Assembly (NCBI GenBank): GCA_025057975.1 | Contig: JANWUV010000011.1 | Coordinates: 65,555-129,554 of the forward strand | Origin: Chloracidobacterium sp. | GTDB taxonomy: Bacteria; Acidobacteriota; Blastocatellia; Chloracidobacteriales; Chloracidobacteriaceae | Reading direction: 5' to 3' | DNA: 64,000 nt | Shown here: positions 19,968 to 25,709 of the stretch, piece after piece | Numbering within the stretch: position 1 is the stretch's first letter | How the letters are laid out: every line of letters begins with the position of its first letter | Translations under genes and position numbers: made by a program | Notes under the pieces: model-generated | The model's database searches: none | What the model was told of the DNA's origin: nothing | Seen by the model: only the letters and a program-made list of their open reading frames with translations

Positions 19968-22121
19968 TTACGCCGCCAAACGGCTGCCGCCCTGCGGTAG
20001 GGCAATCCGTCCGATGGGTTGGATGGTGAGGTCCGGCGAGAGTTCTTGGTAGGACAACACGGAAACATTCGGAAACTCGACTTCGACCAGTTTCCGCACG
20101 AAGCGCCGAATGTCCATATCCGTTACAATGACCGGTTTTTGCGCCGTCGGCGGCAACGCACCGACTTCCTCGCGCAGCGCCGCCAGAATGTCATTGCTGA
20201 TGGTCGGGTCAAGCGCCAGAAATGCAGCCGTCGAGGTGCGTCGGATCGAACCCCGGATGATGTCTTCAATTTCCGGATCTAGCAGGTAAACAAACAGCGT
20301 CCCTTTGCCGCCCGAAGCCCGGAACGAAATGACCCGCTTTAGCGACGCCCGGACGTATTCCGTCAACTGCGCCGGGTCCTTCTCGATGCGCCCCCATTCC
20401 GCCAGGGCGTCCAGTATGGATTTCACATCCCGAATCGAGACGCCCTCTTGGACAAGCCGCTGTAACACGTCCGTGAACAGGTGCAGTGAGACGATCTTGG
20501 GGACGACTTCCTCGACCAGTTTTGGTGCTCCGCGTCCGACAAAATCCAGCAGCGCCTGCGCTTCCTGAATACCGATATATTCGTGCGCGTGCCGGCGCAG
20601 AATGTGCGAAACGTGCAGTAGCAGAAAATCGCTCGGCTCCCAAATCTTCAGACCGGCGGCCATCGCCAGCATGCGGTAGTCTTCCGGCACCCACGCGCCG
20701 GGACGCAAATCCGCCGGATTGCGAACCTCCTCGCCCTCAATGCCGAAGACTTTGATGTTTTCAACGGAGTCGTTGACGTAGAAGTGAAACGGCTTGATGA
20801 CGCCTTGCGCAACTGGGATTTCTTTGACGGCAAAGATGTAGTGGAACGGTTCGAGGGGCGCGTTGCCAGTGACGTAAATCTGCGGCATCAGTACGCCTGT
20901 GTCGTAATACATTGAGTTGCGCAGCGCCGTCAGGCCCTCCCGGAATTTCGCCCCGGCTGGGAACTGCGGGTCAATGTAGGGCGCTAGGTCGGCGCTGGCG
21001 ACAAGCGCCATCGGAACGGTGTAAGACGGCTGGACTTCATCGCTTTCAGCCGCCGCTGGACTTGCCGTTGCGGTACCGTCGGCGGCCTTTGCCGCCAACA
21101 TTTGCTGTCGCTTCCGGAGGCTCAGCGCCACAGGCGCAGCGACAGCCGCGACAATCAGCACCGGCACGGCAACGCTGCTGCCGGCCAAAACAGCAAGTAC
21201 TGCCAGCGAGCCCAACAGGCCGGAAACCACTAGCAACGGTTTGGGATTCGCCAGCATCTGGGCGCTCATGTCCGAGCCGACATTGCTGCTTGCGTCGGCG
21301 TCGTCGCCGGCGACGCGCGTCACTACCAAACCGGCTGAGATGGCGATGAAGATGGAGGCAAAGATGGCCCCCAAACCGTCGCCAATTGTGAGAATCAGGT
21401 ATTTTTTCGCCGCCGCCGCCGGAGACAACCCCTTGTACAACACACCCACTGCAATACCGGCGACGATATTGACGACGGCGATGATGATCGTGGCGATGGA
21501 GTCGCCCTTGACGAATTTCATCGCTCCGTCCATCGCGCCGTACAGGCGGGACTCCTTGGCCAAGTCGGAGCGGAGCTTCTTGGCGACATCCATCGTGATG
21601 AGGCCTGACCGCATATCGGCGTCAATGGCCATTTGCTTGCCTGGTAGAGCGTCGAGGGTAAACCGGGCGGCGACTTCCGCAACGCGCTCCGCGCCTTTCG
21701 CCACGACCAGAAACTGCACTACCAGCAGGATGATGAACATCACGAAGCCGACGACTAGATTGCCCTGCGCTGTGATCTCACCCAACGCCTTGATCACATC
21801 GCCTGCGTCGCCTTTGGTGAGGATGCTACGCGTACACGAAATGCTCAGCGCCAGCCGAAACAGCGTCGTCAGCAACAAGATGGTCGGGTAGGTCGAAAGT
21901 TGCAGCGGACTTGAAATGTAAAGCGACACCATCATCACGGCGAGCGAAATGGTGATGTTGACCACAATGAGCACCGAGATGATGAAGGTCGGTACCGGCA
22001 CGATGATCGTCCCGATGAGAACGAGCATGCCAGCGGCGATCAGGAGGTCGCTGTTTTTTGATAGGGCGGCAGCGAAGTCAATCCCGCTAAGGTTCTTTAC
22101 GCTTTCCGTCAGCGAGGCCAT
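19968..22121 (-). CDS. sctV: T3SS export-gate protein, FlhA/SctV (FHIPEP) family, leaning SctV
   Basis: 717 aa. SPLQLSTYPTILLLTTLFRLALSIS, VQFLVVAKGAERVAEVAARFTLDALPGKQMAIDADMRSGLI, KESRLYGAMDGAMKFVKGDSIA, LTIGDGL, plus a large cytoplasmic C-terminal domain. By recollection most signature residues follow the SctV pattern and a few follow FlhA (FTLDA, QMAIDAD). Confidence 0.9.
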   Translation of the reverse strand: MASLTESVKNLSGIDFAAALSKNSDLLIAAGMLVLIGTIIVPVPTFIISVLIVVNITISLAVMMVSLYISSPLQLSTYPTILLLTTLFRLALSISCTRSILTKGDAGDVIKALGEITAQGNLVVGFVMFIILLVVQFLVVAKGAERVAEVAARFTLDALPGKQMAIDADMRSGLITMDVAKKLRSDLAKESRLYGAMDGAMKFVKGDSIATIIIAVVNIVAGIAVGVLYKGLSPAAAAKKYLILTIGDGLGAIFASIFIAISAGLVVTRVAGDDADASSNVGSDMSAQMLANPKPLLVVSGLLGSLAVLAVLAGSSVAVPVLIVAAVAAPVALSLRKRQQMLAAKAADGTATASPAAAESDEVQPSYTVPMALVASADLAPYIDPQFPAGAKFREGLTALRNSMYYDTGVLMPQIYVTGNAPLEPFHYIFAVKEIPVAQGVIKPFHFYVNDSVENIKVFGIEGEEVRNPADLRPGAWVPEDYRMLAMAAGLKIWEPSDFLLLHVSHILRRHAHEYIGIQEAQALLDFVGRGAPKLVEEVVPKIVSLHLFTDVLQRLVQEGVSIRDVKSILDALAEWGRIEKDPAQLTEYVRASLKRVISFRASGGKGTLFVYLLDPEIEDIIRGSIRRTSTAAFLALDPTISNDILAALREEVGALPPTAQKPVIVTDMDIRRFVRKLVEVEFPNVSVLSYQELSPDLTIQPIGRIALPQGGSRLAA

Positions 22122-22160
22122 AAGCGTCTGCGGCTACCTAATAGAGCGGTTTTAGACAGG

Positions 22161-23348
22161 TCAAAGGTTTTCCAAAAGCACGTAGACAACTAGCGCGCCG
22201 AGCAACGTTCCCACAGCCATCACTAGCAGTTCAAGACCGGTGAAATACCCAAGGTAATAGACTGTCTCGGAGCCGCCCGGCGCAGGCTGAGATGTAGCGT
22301 CCGCCGCTTGCTCTGGTGTTGCGGAGCGGAGGTCCGCTTCCGTTAGGGCAGGCATCTCCACAACCTGGCGAAGCGGCGTCTCAACCTCCGACGCCACAGC
22401 CGGCGATGTGGAAGCTTTGGAGGTGGATTGGTGTTGAGCCTCGTCTGTCGGTTCGACCGCCGGCGGCGGGGCGGCGGCTACCGCCTTATTGAGGATAGCG
22501 AGCGTCGGCGGCGTCCGAAACACCAACGTAGGCAGGGGACGGTCCAACGGACGGGAAAGTGGCGAAGCGAAGCGGATGCGGTCGCCGTCGGCGAGGACGC
22601 GCGGCGTCGTCACCGGTTCGTCATTCACAGTGAGCCGATGTTCAGCGGTGACGGGGTGCAGCGTCACCTGGTCGCCGACCTTGCGCACAAGGGCGCAGTA
22701 AGTCGCCAACTCCTGCTGGTTCATCGTGATGCGCAGCCCAGAGGCTTCCCAGCCAAGAGAGGTTTCTGCATCGCCGGTCGGCAAGAGCAACAACACGTTC
22801 GATTGATAGCCGCCCTCGATGACGAAGCGGAATCTATCTTCCGGCGTCACAAGCGCGTCCAAAATCTGGGCAAAGCTAGCGTTTTCAGGGATTTCCAGCG
22901 ACTTTCGTTGGCCTGGAGACCGAAACGCCGCCGGGAAAACGGCGTCGAGGTCAAACCTTAGGCCGCTGGTAAAGAGTTCGCGCGTCGCCGCCTGCAATAG
23001 GCTGGTCGCTCGAGGGTCATCTAACCGCGCCGCCGGCGAGTTGCCATCCAGCACCGTCACGACATAGTCGCCGATGTGGATGCGGTCGCCGAAGGTAATA
23101 GCTCGCCGGTCGCCGATGCGCACCGGTAAGCCATTTAGACGAGTGCCGTCGCCGTGATTTGCCATGGCGACGTGGCCATTCTCCTCGAAGAGCACCACAT
23201 GTTCGGCTGCAATGCCTGAGCCAGTTAGCCGCAGGGTCGCTTGAGGGCTGCTTCCAATACTGATGATGGTCGTGCGCCAAGTGTCCTCCAACAAAGGTTT
23301 GGCGGCCGGCGGGGCGCCGACCTCGCGCACGATCAGTTTGACTTCCAT
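22161..23348 (-). CDS. Double-FHA protein with a C-terminal TM anchor (SctD/YscD cytoplasmic-domain-like)
   Basis: FHA-like 1: IGSSPQATLRL..IAAEHVVLFEENGHVAMANHGDGTRLNGLPV..GDRIHIGDYVV. FHA-like 2: RFRFVIEGG..VRKVGDQVTLHPVTAEHRLTVNDEPV..DGDRIRF. A low-complexity linker follows. The single TM (LELLVMAVGTLLGALVVYVLL) is followed by only three residues (ENL) before the stop. Located 39 nt upstream of sctV. Confidence 0.6.
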   Translation of the reverse strand: MEVKLIVREVGAPPAAKPLLEDTWRTTIISIGSSPQATLRLTGSGIAAEHVVLFEENGHVAMANHGDGTRLNGLPVRIGDRRAITFGDRIHIGDYVVTVLDGNSPAARLDDPRATSLLQAATRELFTSGLRFDLDAVFPAAFRSPGQRKSLEIPENASFAQILDALVTPEDRFRFVIEGGYQSNVLLLLPTGDAETSLGWEASGLRITMNQQELATYCALVRKVGDQVTLHPVTAEHRLTVNDEPVTTPRVLADGDRIRFASPLSRPLDRPLPTLVFRTPPTLAILNKAVAAAPPPAVEPTDEAQHQSTSKASTSPAVASEVETPLRQVVEMPALTEADLRSATPEQAADATSQPAPGGSETVYYLGYFTGLELLVMAVGTLLGALVVYVLLENL

Positions 23349-23702
23349 CCAACTTACTCCTCCGGTTTGGAACCAGCACAGCGGCGACCCTGTTTAGCGA
23401 GTATTTCTTGAGAGGCCATGACGCAGTTTACCGCTTGCCTTCCCAACCGACGTTCGGCCATGCTAGGGAGCACATGTAAACTTTACGTTAGGTCACGGCC
23501 AATGTTACGCTGCTGTAACCCGCTTGTGCATCATGCAGCGTCAAGCGTCGCTCAAGACGCAGTTCGGAAAATTTTTCAACTTTTCCTCCGACTTGGACGC
23601 AACACTGCAACGCGCCTTCCGATAACAAGGGTGCAAGCGGGAAACGCTTCGTCGTTGCATCCGAAATAGATGATTCACGAACGAGCTACAGGAGACACCC
23701 CG

Positions 23703-25205: not shown

Positions 25206-25616
25206 ATGCCACTCCCACTCGTTGCCGGTCTTGCCAAAATCGCCCTTCCGATGCTCAAGGGCGTTGCGATGAACGCCGTCAAGGGCCTTGCCGTGTCGCT
25301 AATCAGCGAGGGCATTAGAGGCGCTCTGACAAACCTTGTGCAGCGCATTGGTACGTCGTTGCTCAACGGTAATAACACCAACATCGCTAAGAACCCGCCG
25401 CTTGGGCCCTTTGGCCGTACAACGGACTTCCTTGGCCGCACCGCCGATTTCTTGGGTAACTTTGCTCAGCGGCTGCAGAGCATCGCGGATCGGTTGCAGC
25501 GAATCTCTTCCGCCTTGACGAAGTTTAATGAAGCTCTCAAGACCTTGATGGATGCTGTGGCGGGCCGCGACGTGGTCGCTGACAAAATTCGCCAAGCCAA
25601 TATCGCTAGCTGCTAA
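25206..25616 (+). CDS. 136-aa protein (N module only)
   Basis: ggagg SD. The block NIAKNPPLGPFGRTTDFLGRTADFLGNFAQRLQSIADRLQRISSALTKFNEALKTLMDAVAGR is 51/63 identical (hand count) to the 232-aa protein. Confidence 0.7.
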   Translation: MPLPLVAGLAKIALPMLKGVAMNAVKGLAVSLISEGIRGALTNLVQRIGTSLLNGNNTNIAKNPPLGPFGRTTDFLGRTADFLGNFAQRLQSIADRLQRISSALTKFNEALKTLMDAVAGRDVVADKIRQANIASC

Positions 25617-25680
25617 GTTCCGCTTAGGTTTTCGCCGTTCATTTTGTCCGCCGCCGTTGGGCGGCGTCATTGTTTCGCTA

Positions 25681-25709
25681 GCGCGCCGAAAAAGGCGCGC
25701 TTTGTTTTT
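25681..25709 (+). terminator. Rho-independent terminator closing the small-protein operon
   Basis: gcgcgcc-gaaaaa-ggcgcgc (7-bp GC stem) followed by tttgttttt. Confidence 0.8.

Follow-up and report, generated by a model that had tools for sequence, protein, structure and literature searches.

What is an export-gate gene of the FlhA/SctV kind, paired with a gene for an FHA-domain protein and facing an operon of small helical proteins, doing in a Chloracidobacterium? The question is raised by a 64,000-nt stretch of Chloracidobacterium sp. contig JANWUV010000011.1 (positions 65,555-129,554 of the forward strand), which we call the window. The original prediction for this DNA was an injectisome-like export-gate operon diverging from a chaperone-substrate operon, and it holds up well: the six genes stand where it put them, the gate protein passes the family cut-off for SctV, relatives carry the same gene pair inside clusters of further sct genes, and one of the small proteins is a remote homologue of the needle subunit SctF. 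We think it likely that the locus encodes part of a non-flagellar type III secretion system (T3SS), dispersed in Chloracidobacterium and clustered in many other Blastocatellia, with a needle-like axial subunit. A 2012 survey found non-flagellar T3SSs only in Proteobacteria, Chlamydiae and Verrucomicrobia, and none in Acidobacteria (PMC3459982), and in the literature that we searched no paper describes one in Acidobacteria. That the genes exist is not new: NCBI already names SctV proteins, and C. thermophilum is noted (PMC6456723) as keeping the flagellar/T3SS 'CORE' export-apparatus genes while most genes of the flagellum and the injectisome are missing. What is new is the architecture and spread of these genes. 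The coordinates of all features are collected in Table 1.

Under their flagellar names, the 'CORE' export-apparatus genes are FliP/Q/R, FlhA and FlhB. The gate protein of the window matches Pfam FHIPEP over the full length (681 bits). It scores 729.3 bits against TIGR01399, the NCBIfam equivalog of SctV, which is above the cut-off of 692.25, and 593.2 bits against TIGR01398, the equivalog of FlhA, which is below the cut-off of 772.1. The best full-length match in the PDB is Yersinia YscV with 559 bits, and flagellar FlhA chains reach 377, 340 and 329 bits. For the cytoplasmic domain, the best match is 6wa6 (297 bits), named 'Low calcium response locus protein D' in the PDB table, which we take to be the C-domain of chlamydial CdsV; YscV follows with 254 bits, and the domains of FlhA, InvA, EscV, MxiA and SsaV score 109-146 bits. 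The identity is 40% to YscV and 37% to Shigella MxiA (both reference sequences are taken from annotated plasmid records), and the matches in the plasmid collection are led by Vsc, Asc and Ysc. As judged by these family comparisons, the gate protein is an injectisome-type SctV and not a flagellar FlhA.

Genes for this type of SctV are widespread, with more than 100 protein clusters at 90% identity from soil and hot-spring Acidobacteria. The closest homologues (90-92% identity) are those of Chloracidobacterium metagenome-assembled genomes (MAGs) and of C. validum. Homologues at 56-65% identity fill the rest of the best 120 protein clusters; those with names come from Pyrinomonadaceae, Blastocatellia and unclassified Acidobacteriota, and many are called SctV by NCBI or IMG. 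As relatives' clusters we use four 22-kb loci on multi-megabase contigs (L001, L002, L091 and L092). All four include the FHA-sctV pair together with sctJ, a gene of about 335 aa, sctL and sctN. L001, L002 and L091 also have sctU, as well as sctO and a FliA/WhiG-like sigma factor, and two of the four (L002 and L091) have sctS and sctT. Several TPR genes lie within these clusters, and one locus has a FliK/SctP-like fragment. The components are nearest to those of Ysc, with SctN 56-61% identical to YscN, SctS 48% and SctU 34%. In every case, the FHA-sctV pair faces a divergent operon with genes for a helical protein of 94-103 aa, for a protein of 114-157 aa whose C-terminus resembles the 72-aa protein of the window, and for a 133-aa TPR protein, an order that parallels yscE-yscF-yscG of Ysc-type systems. 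In the sister species (L011 and L012) all six genes of the window locus are present in the same order; the L011 proteins are 90% (SctV) and 93% (TPR protein) identical to those of the window. A 133-aa protein of the L003 cluster used as a query finds only itself.

The gene upstream of sctV encodes the double-FHA protein with a single transmembrane (TM) helix. As predicted, the full-length sctV gene begins 39 nt downstream of it on the minus strand. The same gene stands directly upstream of sctV in five relatives (L001, L002, L004, L091 and L092). Pfam FHA matches the protein in two stretches (43.6 bits), and Yop-YscD_cpl scores 28.9 bits, below its cut-off of 33.2. In hhalign comparisons of the family with 49 Yersinia and Shigella T3SS proteins, the best is the FHA domain of YscD (residues 21-89, P 7e-4), and the degenerate second FHA-like half has P 0.0024. 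The single hydrophobic helix occupies residues 374-392 of 395, at the extreme C-terminus. The orthologues in L001, L002 and L004 are likewise tail-anchored and end 3-5 residues past the helix (four of four scanned, including that of the window). SctD is recognised by a TM helix followed by a periplasmic ring-building domain, and the FHA protein has no such domain after its helix. We suggest that it has the cytoplasmic face and the position of SctD, but that it cannot form SctD's periplasmic ring, because its only membrane helix is at the very end. In L003, which is the closest relative outside Chloracidobacterium (SctV 78% identical), about 2 kb upstream of sctV (L003 1700-3846) have no convincing open reading frame (ORF) and no FHA gene; this could be a gene loss or an assembly artefact of a short Logan contig.

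The original prediction called the locus compact, which it is not. A tblastn search of the window with the relatives' cluster proteins identifies sctL and other conserved cluster genes 18 kb away, at the start of the window. SctL passes TIGR02499 (102.9 bits, cut-off 78.7), matches PRK06328 with 130.5 bits and the Pfam families FliH and T3SS_SCTL with 80.9 and 30.1 bits, and is 41% identical to the SctL of L001. The adjacent 328-aa gene has counterparts that sit between sctJ and sctL in the relatives (tblastn E 5e-17 to 2e-20). It has no Pfam or NCBIfam match, and hhalign finds no match to YscK, YscQ, MxiK or Spa33, so we do not name it SctK or SctQ. On the other side of sctL, overlapping its stop codon, a gene for an FGE-sulfatase-fold protein continues past the window start. 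The complete product of 315 aa, seen in L006, has a short cytoplasmic N-terminus, one TM helix, a proline-rich linker and the FGE-sulfatase fold, and its gene is followed in L006 by that of a 433-aa exported TPR protein. An FGE-sulfatase-fold gene followed by a TPR gene also flanks the T3SS clusters of L001, L002 and L091, and this pair goes with the T3SS in all the lineages examined. Because FGE-sulfatase folds form the periplasmic rings of the type IX secretion system (GldK/PorK), the protein may by analogy be a structural part of the T3SS. The second TPR gene (start according to the L006 gene call) is the orthologue of the TPR gene that comes after sctO in the relatives, and its family aligns to LcrH with hhalign (probability 91.7%, P 7.9e-7).

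The sctL sub-locus and the sctV locus of the window are kept apart by some 14.7 kb of unrelated genes (5.3-19.97 kb). They include genes for a peptidase M14, a Uma2 endonuclease, an aldo-keto reductase, Usp, OmpA/Big_9, a glutamate dehydrogenase and sugar-modifying enzymes. In L011 the two sub-loci are contiguous, with the sctL genes directly beside sctV; the order is small-protein operon, FHA-sctV, a lipid-synthase-like gene, the second TPR gene and a dicarboxylate symporter gene, followed by the 328-aa gene, sctL, the FGE-sulfatase gene and a TPR gene. The M14 gene of L011 is inverted and lies on the opposite side of the module, so a local rearrangement has occurred between the window and L011. 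Out of minimal, dispersed and repurposed, the three options left by the original prediction, dispersal is the one supported: sctL is separated from sctV, and in related MAGs the sigma gene is on a different contig from the cluster. For a minimal system, the evidence weighs neither way.

The evidence for an axial subunit comes from the three small proteins of the divergent operon. A TPR gene followed by three small genes, each with a strong Shine-Dalgarno sequence, had been predicted, and we find a GGAG-type ribosome-binding site before each of the 72-, 232- and 136-aa genes. The three proteins share modules. The 232-aa protein consists of a helical N-terminal module, a Pro/Ser-rich linker and a C-terminal SctF-like module; the 136-aa protein is 62% identical to its N-terminus, and the 72-aa protein is 67% identical to its C-terminus. 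Direct searches of Pfam and NCBIfam with the 72-aa and 232-aa proteins report no known family. A word-indexed search collects 18 proteins in total (including the two of the window) at 60-79% identity, and those with names are all from Chloracidobacterium. Profile searches add a more distant 239-aa protein built like the 232-aa protein, proteins that repeat the N-terminal module, and others that repeat the C-terminal module or pair it with other N-termini. For the wider family, a profile search covering 1.84 billion representatives adds no fewer than 14 clusters whose proteins, of 69-80 aa, share the C-terminal module, among which the named ones are one from Pyrinomonadaceae and one from Thermogemmatispora.

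An early narrow profile gave a suggestive match to MxiH (P 0.004). With 16 members (alignment A5), hhalign aligns the 72-aa family to seven SctF sequences taken from annotated plasmids with a probability of 78.6% (P 1.7e-5). The alignment spans SctF columns 41-83, from the P-(S/D)-(N/D)-P turn through the last residue, with a single 11-residue gap. In a column-shuffle control, none of 200 shuffles scores above 16.9, and the observed score is 30.1. The Pfam family matched by most members is T3SS_needle_F (5/16, all below threshold, best E 0.0048). The top PDB match of the 16-member profile is 7y6c_F, a 43-residue fragment of an SPI-2-type needle (E 0.0046), matched in two pieces that flank an insertion; PrgI comes next with E 3. 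The family is like the SctF needle subunits (PF09392: MxiH, PrgI, YscF, SsaG and EscF) in its size of 69-80 aa, in having the turn followed by (L/M)xYQxxxxxY, in a C-terminal helix, SNxxKxxHDAxMxIxxNxK/R, whose alignment with MxiH and PrgI runs to their last residue, and in that the 72-aa gene adjoins a TPR chaperone gene. It differs from them by an 11-residue insertion in the long helix, and by a proline-rich arm and a PGxNATPE turn in the place of the N-terminal helix. These comparisons show the 72-aa protein, like the C-terminal module of the 232-aa protein, to be remotely homologous to the C-terminal two-thirds of SctF, and we read the 72-aa family as predicted axial, polymerising parts with variable heads.

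The SctF-like module opens with a PGxNATPE(E/Q)xxxYQ motif and a proline-rich stretch in both the 72-aa and 232-aa proteins. A sequence search matches the N-terminus of the module to pancreatic polypeptide (PP)/PYY and to designed PP-alpha miniproteins (E 0.017). The AlphaFold2 (AF2) model of the 72-aa protein (pLDDT 76), in which residues 1-21 are non-helical and residues 22-71 form one helix, superposes on PP-fold peptides at about 1 A over 30 residues. The Foldseek matches to this model are confined to PP-fold peptides and are not significant (E > 2), and a phmmer search of the PDB with the 72-aa protein and its Pyrinomonadaceae homologue returns only pancreatic-polypeptide-type or chance matches. 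The N-terminus of the module may be, as modelled, a bacterial convergent PP-fold. The AF2 model of the 232-aa protein (from the 18-sequence alignment) is unusable, with pLDDT 44.6. In IMG, the 232-aa family goes under the name 'uncharacterized protein YukE' (WXG100/ESAT-6-like) and the 136-aa family under 'methyl-accepting chemotaxis protein'. We take both names to be probable coiled-coil false positives, which keep these T3SS-linked genes out of sight in public annotation.

The first gene of the small-protein operon encodes a protein made entirely of TPR repeats. The longest ORF starts at 23670, and the ATG at 23703, with AGGAG 8 nt upstream, is the likelier start. The best NCBIfam match is LcrH_SycD (TIGR02552) with 69.6 bits, below the cut-off of 104.8, and hhalign gives P 0.002 for IpgC and P 0.003 for LcrH. 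The top PDB matches are generic consensus TPRs and not T3SS chaperones. The predicted SycD/LcrH character is thus right as to the nearest family, and the likeness is weak. The protein aligns to the 133-aa TPR protein of the relatives' needle operon with P 4.6e-13 and to their other TPR family with P 2.8e-15; by similarity and position it may correspond to the former. From its context, the TPR protein is likely the chaperone of the small proteins encoded downstream.

Several results count against a needle-bearing T3SS. T3SS_needle_F does not match the 72-aa protein of the window at E up to 10, and none of the 16 family members reaches the Pfam gathering score of this family (PF09392). An 11-sequence profile (A2) finds no needle protein in the PDB, and a profile made only from Pyrinomonadaceae weakly favours YscX (P 0.012) over MxiH (P 0.16). 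The AF2 model of the 72-aa protein is one helix with a proline-rich arm, not the helix-turn-helix of SctF. As for the rest of the machine, sctN, J, O, R, S, T and U are found neither in the window nor in the 10 kb beyond its start nor within 10 kb of the sigma gene; the T3SS core is represented in these regions only by sctV, plus the non-core sctL. In the relatives' 22-kb loci, no sctR, sctQ or sctC is seen. In an alternative reading, the 72-, 232- and 136-aa proteins are not axial subunits but YscX-type early substrates or regulators, or else lineage-specific secreted effectors, and the TPR protein would be their SctY-like partner, located at the SctV ring. The TPR protein has 37 bits with NCBIfam SctY, the 133-aa TPR family of the relatives gives similar values with YscY (P 5.5e-6) and LcrH (P 3.2e-6), one family member matches Pfam Type_III_YscX (E 0.015), and in Yersinia yscX and yscY are directly upstream of yscV. 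The full 16-member profile, however, clearly prefers SctF (P 1.7e-5) over YscX (P 0.059), its alignment extends to the very end of both families and recovers the turn of SctF as well as the YQxxxxxY pattern, and five members match T3SS_needle_F where one matches YscX. We consider YscX-type substrates or effectors unlikely. A reading that overlaps with a needle-bearing T3SS, and differs from it only in the distance that the substrates travel, is a secretin-less machine like the Myxococcus T3SS*, which exports no farther than the periplasm or a cell-cell contact site, and whose small proteins would be parts of the periplasm or of that site and not an extracellular needle. It is in keeping with a secretin being present in neither the window nor the four relatives' clusters, with an SctD-like protein that has no periplasmic domain to contact a secretin, and with the T3SS* of M. 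xanthus, which acts in contact-dependent prey lysis without outer-membrane parts and with several LcrH homologues (PMC10433427, PMC12075869). T3SS* is described without a needle homologue, whereas an SctF-like subunit is present here, and a secretin or another outer-membrane channel could be encoded outside the loci searched. This reading remains, in our estimate, a tentative one, with odds well short of even.

A needle-bearing T3SS in use also has to be set against two other origins for these genes. One is that the FHIPEP gene is part of a flagellar system, which the original prediction saw as a finding that, with a complete flagellar regulon elsewhere, would overturn it. NCBI lists one partial Chloracidobacterium protein as 'flagellar biosynthesis protein FlhA'. 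Against a flagellar origin, the window protein fails the FlhA cut-off and passes that of SctV, and the genes near sctV in the relatives are for SctJ-type short lipoproteins, a YscO-like protein and SctL, with no rod, hook or motor genes. By Pfam, such flagellum-specific genes are absent from the ORFs of the window and from the four relatives' loci, with the sole exception of a weak match to Flg_hook (FliK/SctP-type ruler) at the edge of L091. A metagenome scan with SctV was dominated by flagellar FlhA through one generic peptide pattern and gave few useful loci; its flagellar-type loci are only 32-38% identical and have the order fliPQR-flhB-flhA. The cut-offs, the relatives' neighbours and the flagellar loci together refute the flagellar assignment, to which we give practically no chance. 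The other origin is a T3SS that has fallen out of use in Chloracidobacterium, of which the window would hold a decaying remnant. The cluster is fragmented in comparison with other Blastocatellia, sctJ, N, O and U are missing from the places that they occupy in the relatives, and L003, 78% identical in SctV, has the 2 kb of sequence lacking convincing ORFs at the position of the FHA gene. The genes of the module are nevertheless intact and syntenic across two species, the window and L011, between which synonymous sites are saturated (dS above 1), and dN/dS is 0.01-0.19 where it can be estimated (Table 1). For the FHA gene, dS is too saturated for a ratio (pS 0.76, dN 0.21). Apart from that gene, whose ratio is not estimable, the T3SS genes of the window are under purifying selection. 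In addition, promoter-like blocks are conserved, and named homologues of SctV and/or the 232-aa protein exist in C. thermophilum, C. aggregatum and C. validum. Decay is therefore, in our judgement, very improbable.

As predicted, tblastn of the window with Yersinia and Shigella proteins finds no sctN, sctR/S/T/U, sctJ or sctC. No match to Pfam Secretin, nor to YscC or MxiD by tblastn, is found in the window or in the L001, L002, L091, L092 and L011 loci. The standard T3SS definition used here (TXSScan-type, Abby & Rocha 2012, PMC3459982) includes a secretin, which these loci lack. The L001 cluster (L001 2823-7165) has an LcrH-like TPR gene followed by genes for a 748-aa protein with an RNAse_A_bac toxin domain at its end and for a CdiI_2 immunity protein, which hints at a system that delivers antibacterial toxins. 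The same region includes a DUF1521 protein, DUF1521 being a domain of the rhizobial T3SS effector NopE. Since none of the relatives has a secretin linked to the system and one cluster has a toxin-immunity pair, a eukaryotic host is a less likely target than neighbouring bacteria or the envelope of the cell itself.

In the machine that we propose, the SctV ring would be the export gate in the inner membrane. The tail-anchored FHA protein would dock the cytoplasmic sorting platform, made up of SctL, the 328-aa protein and an ATPase whose gene lies elsewhere, without a periplasmic SctD ring. The TPR protein would hold the small helical proteins unpolymerised and pass them to the gate, where the 72-aa subunit would polymerise into a thin axial filament. 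From its architecture, the 232-aa protein could join the filament through its SctF-like C-terminus, as a tip or an adaptor, and the 136-aa protein could be a partner or a second secreted substrate. Most probably the system works as a T3SS with an axial subunit, and by analogy with the Myxococcus T3SS* it may stop short of the outer membrane.

Among known systems, the Ysc-family injectisomes (Yersinia Ysc, Aeromonas Asc, Photobacterium Vsc) provide the best-matching characterised homologues of SctV and of the relatives' SctN, SctU and SctS. They differ in that no homologues of the secretin, gatekeeper, tip or translocon are found here, that the SctD counterpart has no periplasmic domain, that the needle homologue has the insertion and lacks the N-terminal helix, that a FliA-like sigma factor takes the place of the AraC-type activator, and that the genes are scattered in Chloracidobacterium. 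The chlamydial T3SS (Cds) is also spread over several loci, and its presumed CdsV domain is the best PDB match to the cytoplasmic domain of SctV. CdsD is an SctD-family protein with two FHA domains, and Chlamydiae have a sigma-28-type sigma factor. In Chlamydiae there is also a secretin, CdsF is a recognised needle, and CdsD is full-length, including its periplasmic part. The 'needleless' T3SS* of M. xanthus (MXAN_2434-2464) is a non-flagellar T3SS in a free-living bacterium that is not host-associated, with a cluster lacking a secretin, several LcrH-like TPR proteins and a proposed action on neighbouring bacteria (PMC10433427, PMC3459982). According to its published description, with which we compare, T3SS* has no SctF and keeps SctD, SctI and SctQ; the system here has an SctF-like protein, and SctQ and SctI are not recognisable.

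Until now, the non-flagellar T3SS has been regarded as a means by which Proteobacteria, Chlamydiae and a few of their relatives manipulate eukaryotic cells. Here, the gate and the ATPase are nearest to the Ysc type, yet there is no linked secretin, and SctD is truncated and the needle homologue re-engineered, which would make the system a natural test of how many of the injectisome parts, and which ones, can be done without. It would also be a second lineage of non-pathogens, after the Myxococcus T3SS*, in which to ask what a T3SS does between bacteria. Chloracidobacterium grows only with the help of mat partners, and for such an organism the system is a candidate contact device. More speculatively, and with less confidence than in the T3SS itself, these loci could represent an undescribed family of T3SS in Blastocatellia, the phototroph Chloracidobacterium among them, with a tail-anchored SctD that makes no periplasmic ring, no secretin, a conserved FGE-sulfatase-fold protein, an axial subunit with a polyproline arm in place of the outer helix of SctF, and bacterial instead of eukaryotic targets; we see this as possible and somewhat doubtful. 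If it were true, the FGE-sulfatase-fold protein, anchored in the inner membrane and facing the periplasm, would possibly be a substitute scaffold, and the axial subunit would be a PP-like fold extended by a long helix.

The two operons diverge from an intergenic region predicted to be of about 350 bp, which measures 354 nt with the preferred TPR start. An alignment with L011 and L012 reveals two blocks in it that are near-invariant between species whose synonymous sites are saturated. Block 1 contains GTTAC-N8-GTAAC. Block 2 (TTGGACGCAACACT...CGATAACAAGGGTGCAAGCGG) terminates in CGATAACAAGG, about 75 nt ahead of the TPR start, and a CCGATAA lies at 23619. There is no match to the sigma-70 consensus within the region. 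CGATAA is the core of the -10 element in FliA-type promoters. Because a block with CGATAA is conserved, and a FliA/WhiG-like sigma factor is present in the relatives and in Chloracidobacterium MAGs, the FliA-like sigma factor that belongs to the system is the probable driver of expression at the locus. With the L003 sigma factor as the query, orthologues appear in three MAGs, two named Chloracidobacterium and one named 'uncultured Blastocatellia', and no T3SS gene lies within 10 kb of them in these three MAGs. In five Pyrinomonadaceae-type relatives, the small-gene operon is preceded by a sigma-70-like promoter of the form TTGACA, 17-19 nt, TA(T/C)TATCA(C/T)AA. The exact motif TTGACA-N18-TATCACAA occurs upstream of this operon in four of the five, and neither at other operons nor, with that spacing, in the window. 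We had considered a single promoter for the whole regulon and dropped it, the motif being restricted to the relatives' small-gene operons. At its other end, the operon of the window closes with the clean intrinsic terminator that had been described, an 8-bp stem with 7 G-C pairs and a T-run, with a second hairpin ahead of it.

Table 1. Features of the window and of related loci. Ratios dN/dS are for the window versus L011, with synonymous sites saturated (dS above 1).
Feature	Position	Strand	dN/dS	Basis
sctV, export-gate protein, 717 aa	19968-22121	-	0.054	TIGR01399 above cut-off; PDB and YscV matches
Double-FHA, tail-anchored SctD-like protein, 395 aa	22161-23348	-		Pfam FHA x2; hhalign to YscD
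Divergent control region, two conserved blocks	23349-23702	.		alignment with L011 and L012
Conserved block 1	23453-23519
Conserved block 2	23570-23640
TPR protein, 152 aa (163 aa from 23670)	23703-24161	+	0.012	LcrH_SycD best NCBIfam match
Putative divergent SctF-type (needle filament) subunit, 72 aa	24205-24423	+	0.12	hhalign to SctF family
Two-module protein, 232 aa	24470-25168	+	0.19	identities to 72-aa and 136-aa proteins
PGxNATPE(E/Q)xxxYQ motif with proline-rich stretch	24229-24270; 24991-25032
Paralogue of the 232-aa N-terminal module, 136 aa	25206-25616	+	0.10	identity to 232-aa N-terminus
Two tandem intrinsic terminators closing the small-protein operon	25649-25709	+		hairpins plus T-run
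Second hairpin, ahead of main terminator	25649-25666
Main terminator	25680-25701, T-run to 25709
FGE-sulfatase-fold gene, first 173 codons of 315-aa protein	1-520	-		full gene in L006
sctL (stator/ATPase tether), 215 aa	517-1164	-	0.084	TIGR02499, FliH, PRK06328
Conserved 328-aa gene, sctK position	1180-2166	-	0.11	tblastn to 330-339-aa genes of L001, L002
Second TPR gene, LcrH-like, 172 aa	3846-4364	+		47% identical to L002 16967-17443
FGE-sulfatase-fold and TPR gene pair	L006 7938-10217; L001 94-1092; L002 21093-22040; L091 19960-21725
Shared promoter regions of the small-gene operon	L001 8726-8849; L002 8733-8883; L091 8750-8884; L092 8743-8858; L004 6623-6782
ParA/ParB	40021-41689	-		Pfam annotation of window ORFs
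RepA/TrfA-type replication initiator	56952-58637	-		Pfam annotation of window ORFs
Two multihaem c-type cytochrome genes, then TPR/BTAD protein	51458-53507	+
FHA, GAF, cyclase and PilZ protein, 704 aa	60273-62387	+

The 232-aa protein has homologues in C. thermophilum, C. aggregatum and further isolates. In C. thermophilum strain B, the homologue is the locus Cabther_B0010, on a replicon of 1,012,010 bp, and the B-prefixed locus tag suggests that this replicon is the second chromosome. Because of this homologue, the ParA/ParB genes, the RepA/TrfA-type initiator and a fall in G+C to 0.51-0.53 past 58 kb (58000-64000), the gene content of the window suggests that it spans or lies near the plasmid-type origin of a second chromosome of about 1 Mb. 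The surroundings had been described as acidobacterial-looking, and indeed the neighbouring genes are ordinary for Acidobacteria, such as those for CarboxypepD_reg-OMP_b-brl_4 receptors. Elsewhere in the window, two adjacent multihaem c-type cytochrome genes, with matches to Cytochrome_C7 and MtrC/MtrF-like domains, precede the gene of a TPR/BTAD protein. Finally, a 704-aa protein combines FHA, GAF, adenylate/guanylate cyclase and PilZ domains, and its FHA domain scores 38.3 bits against Yop-YscD_cpl, above the cut-off.

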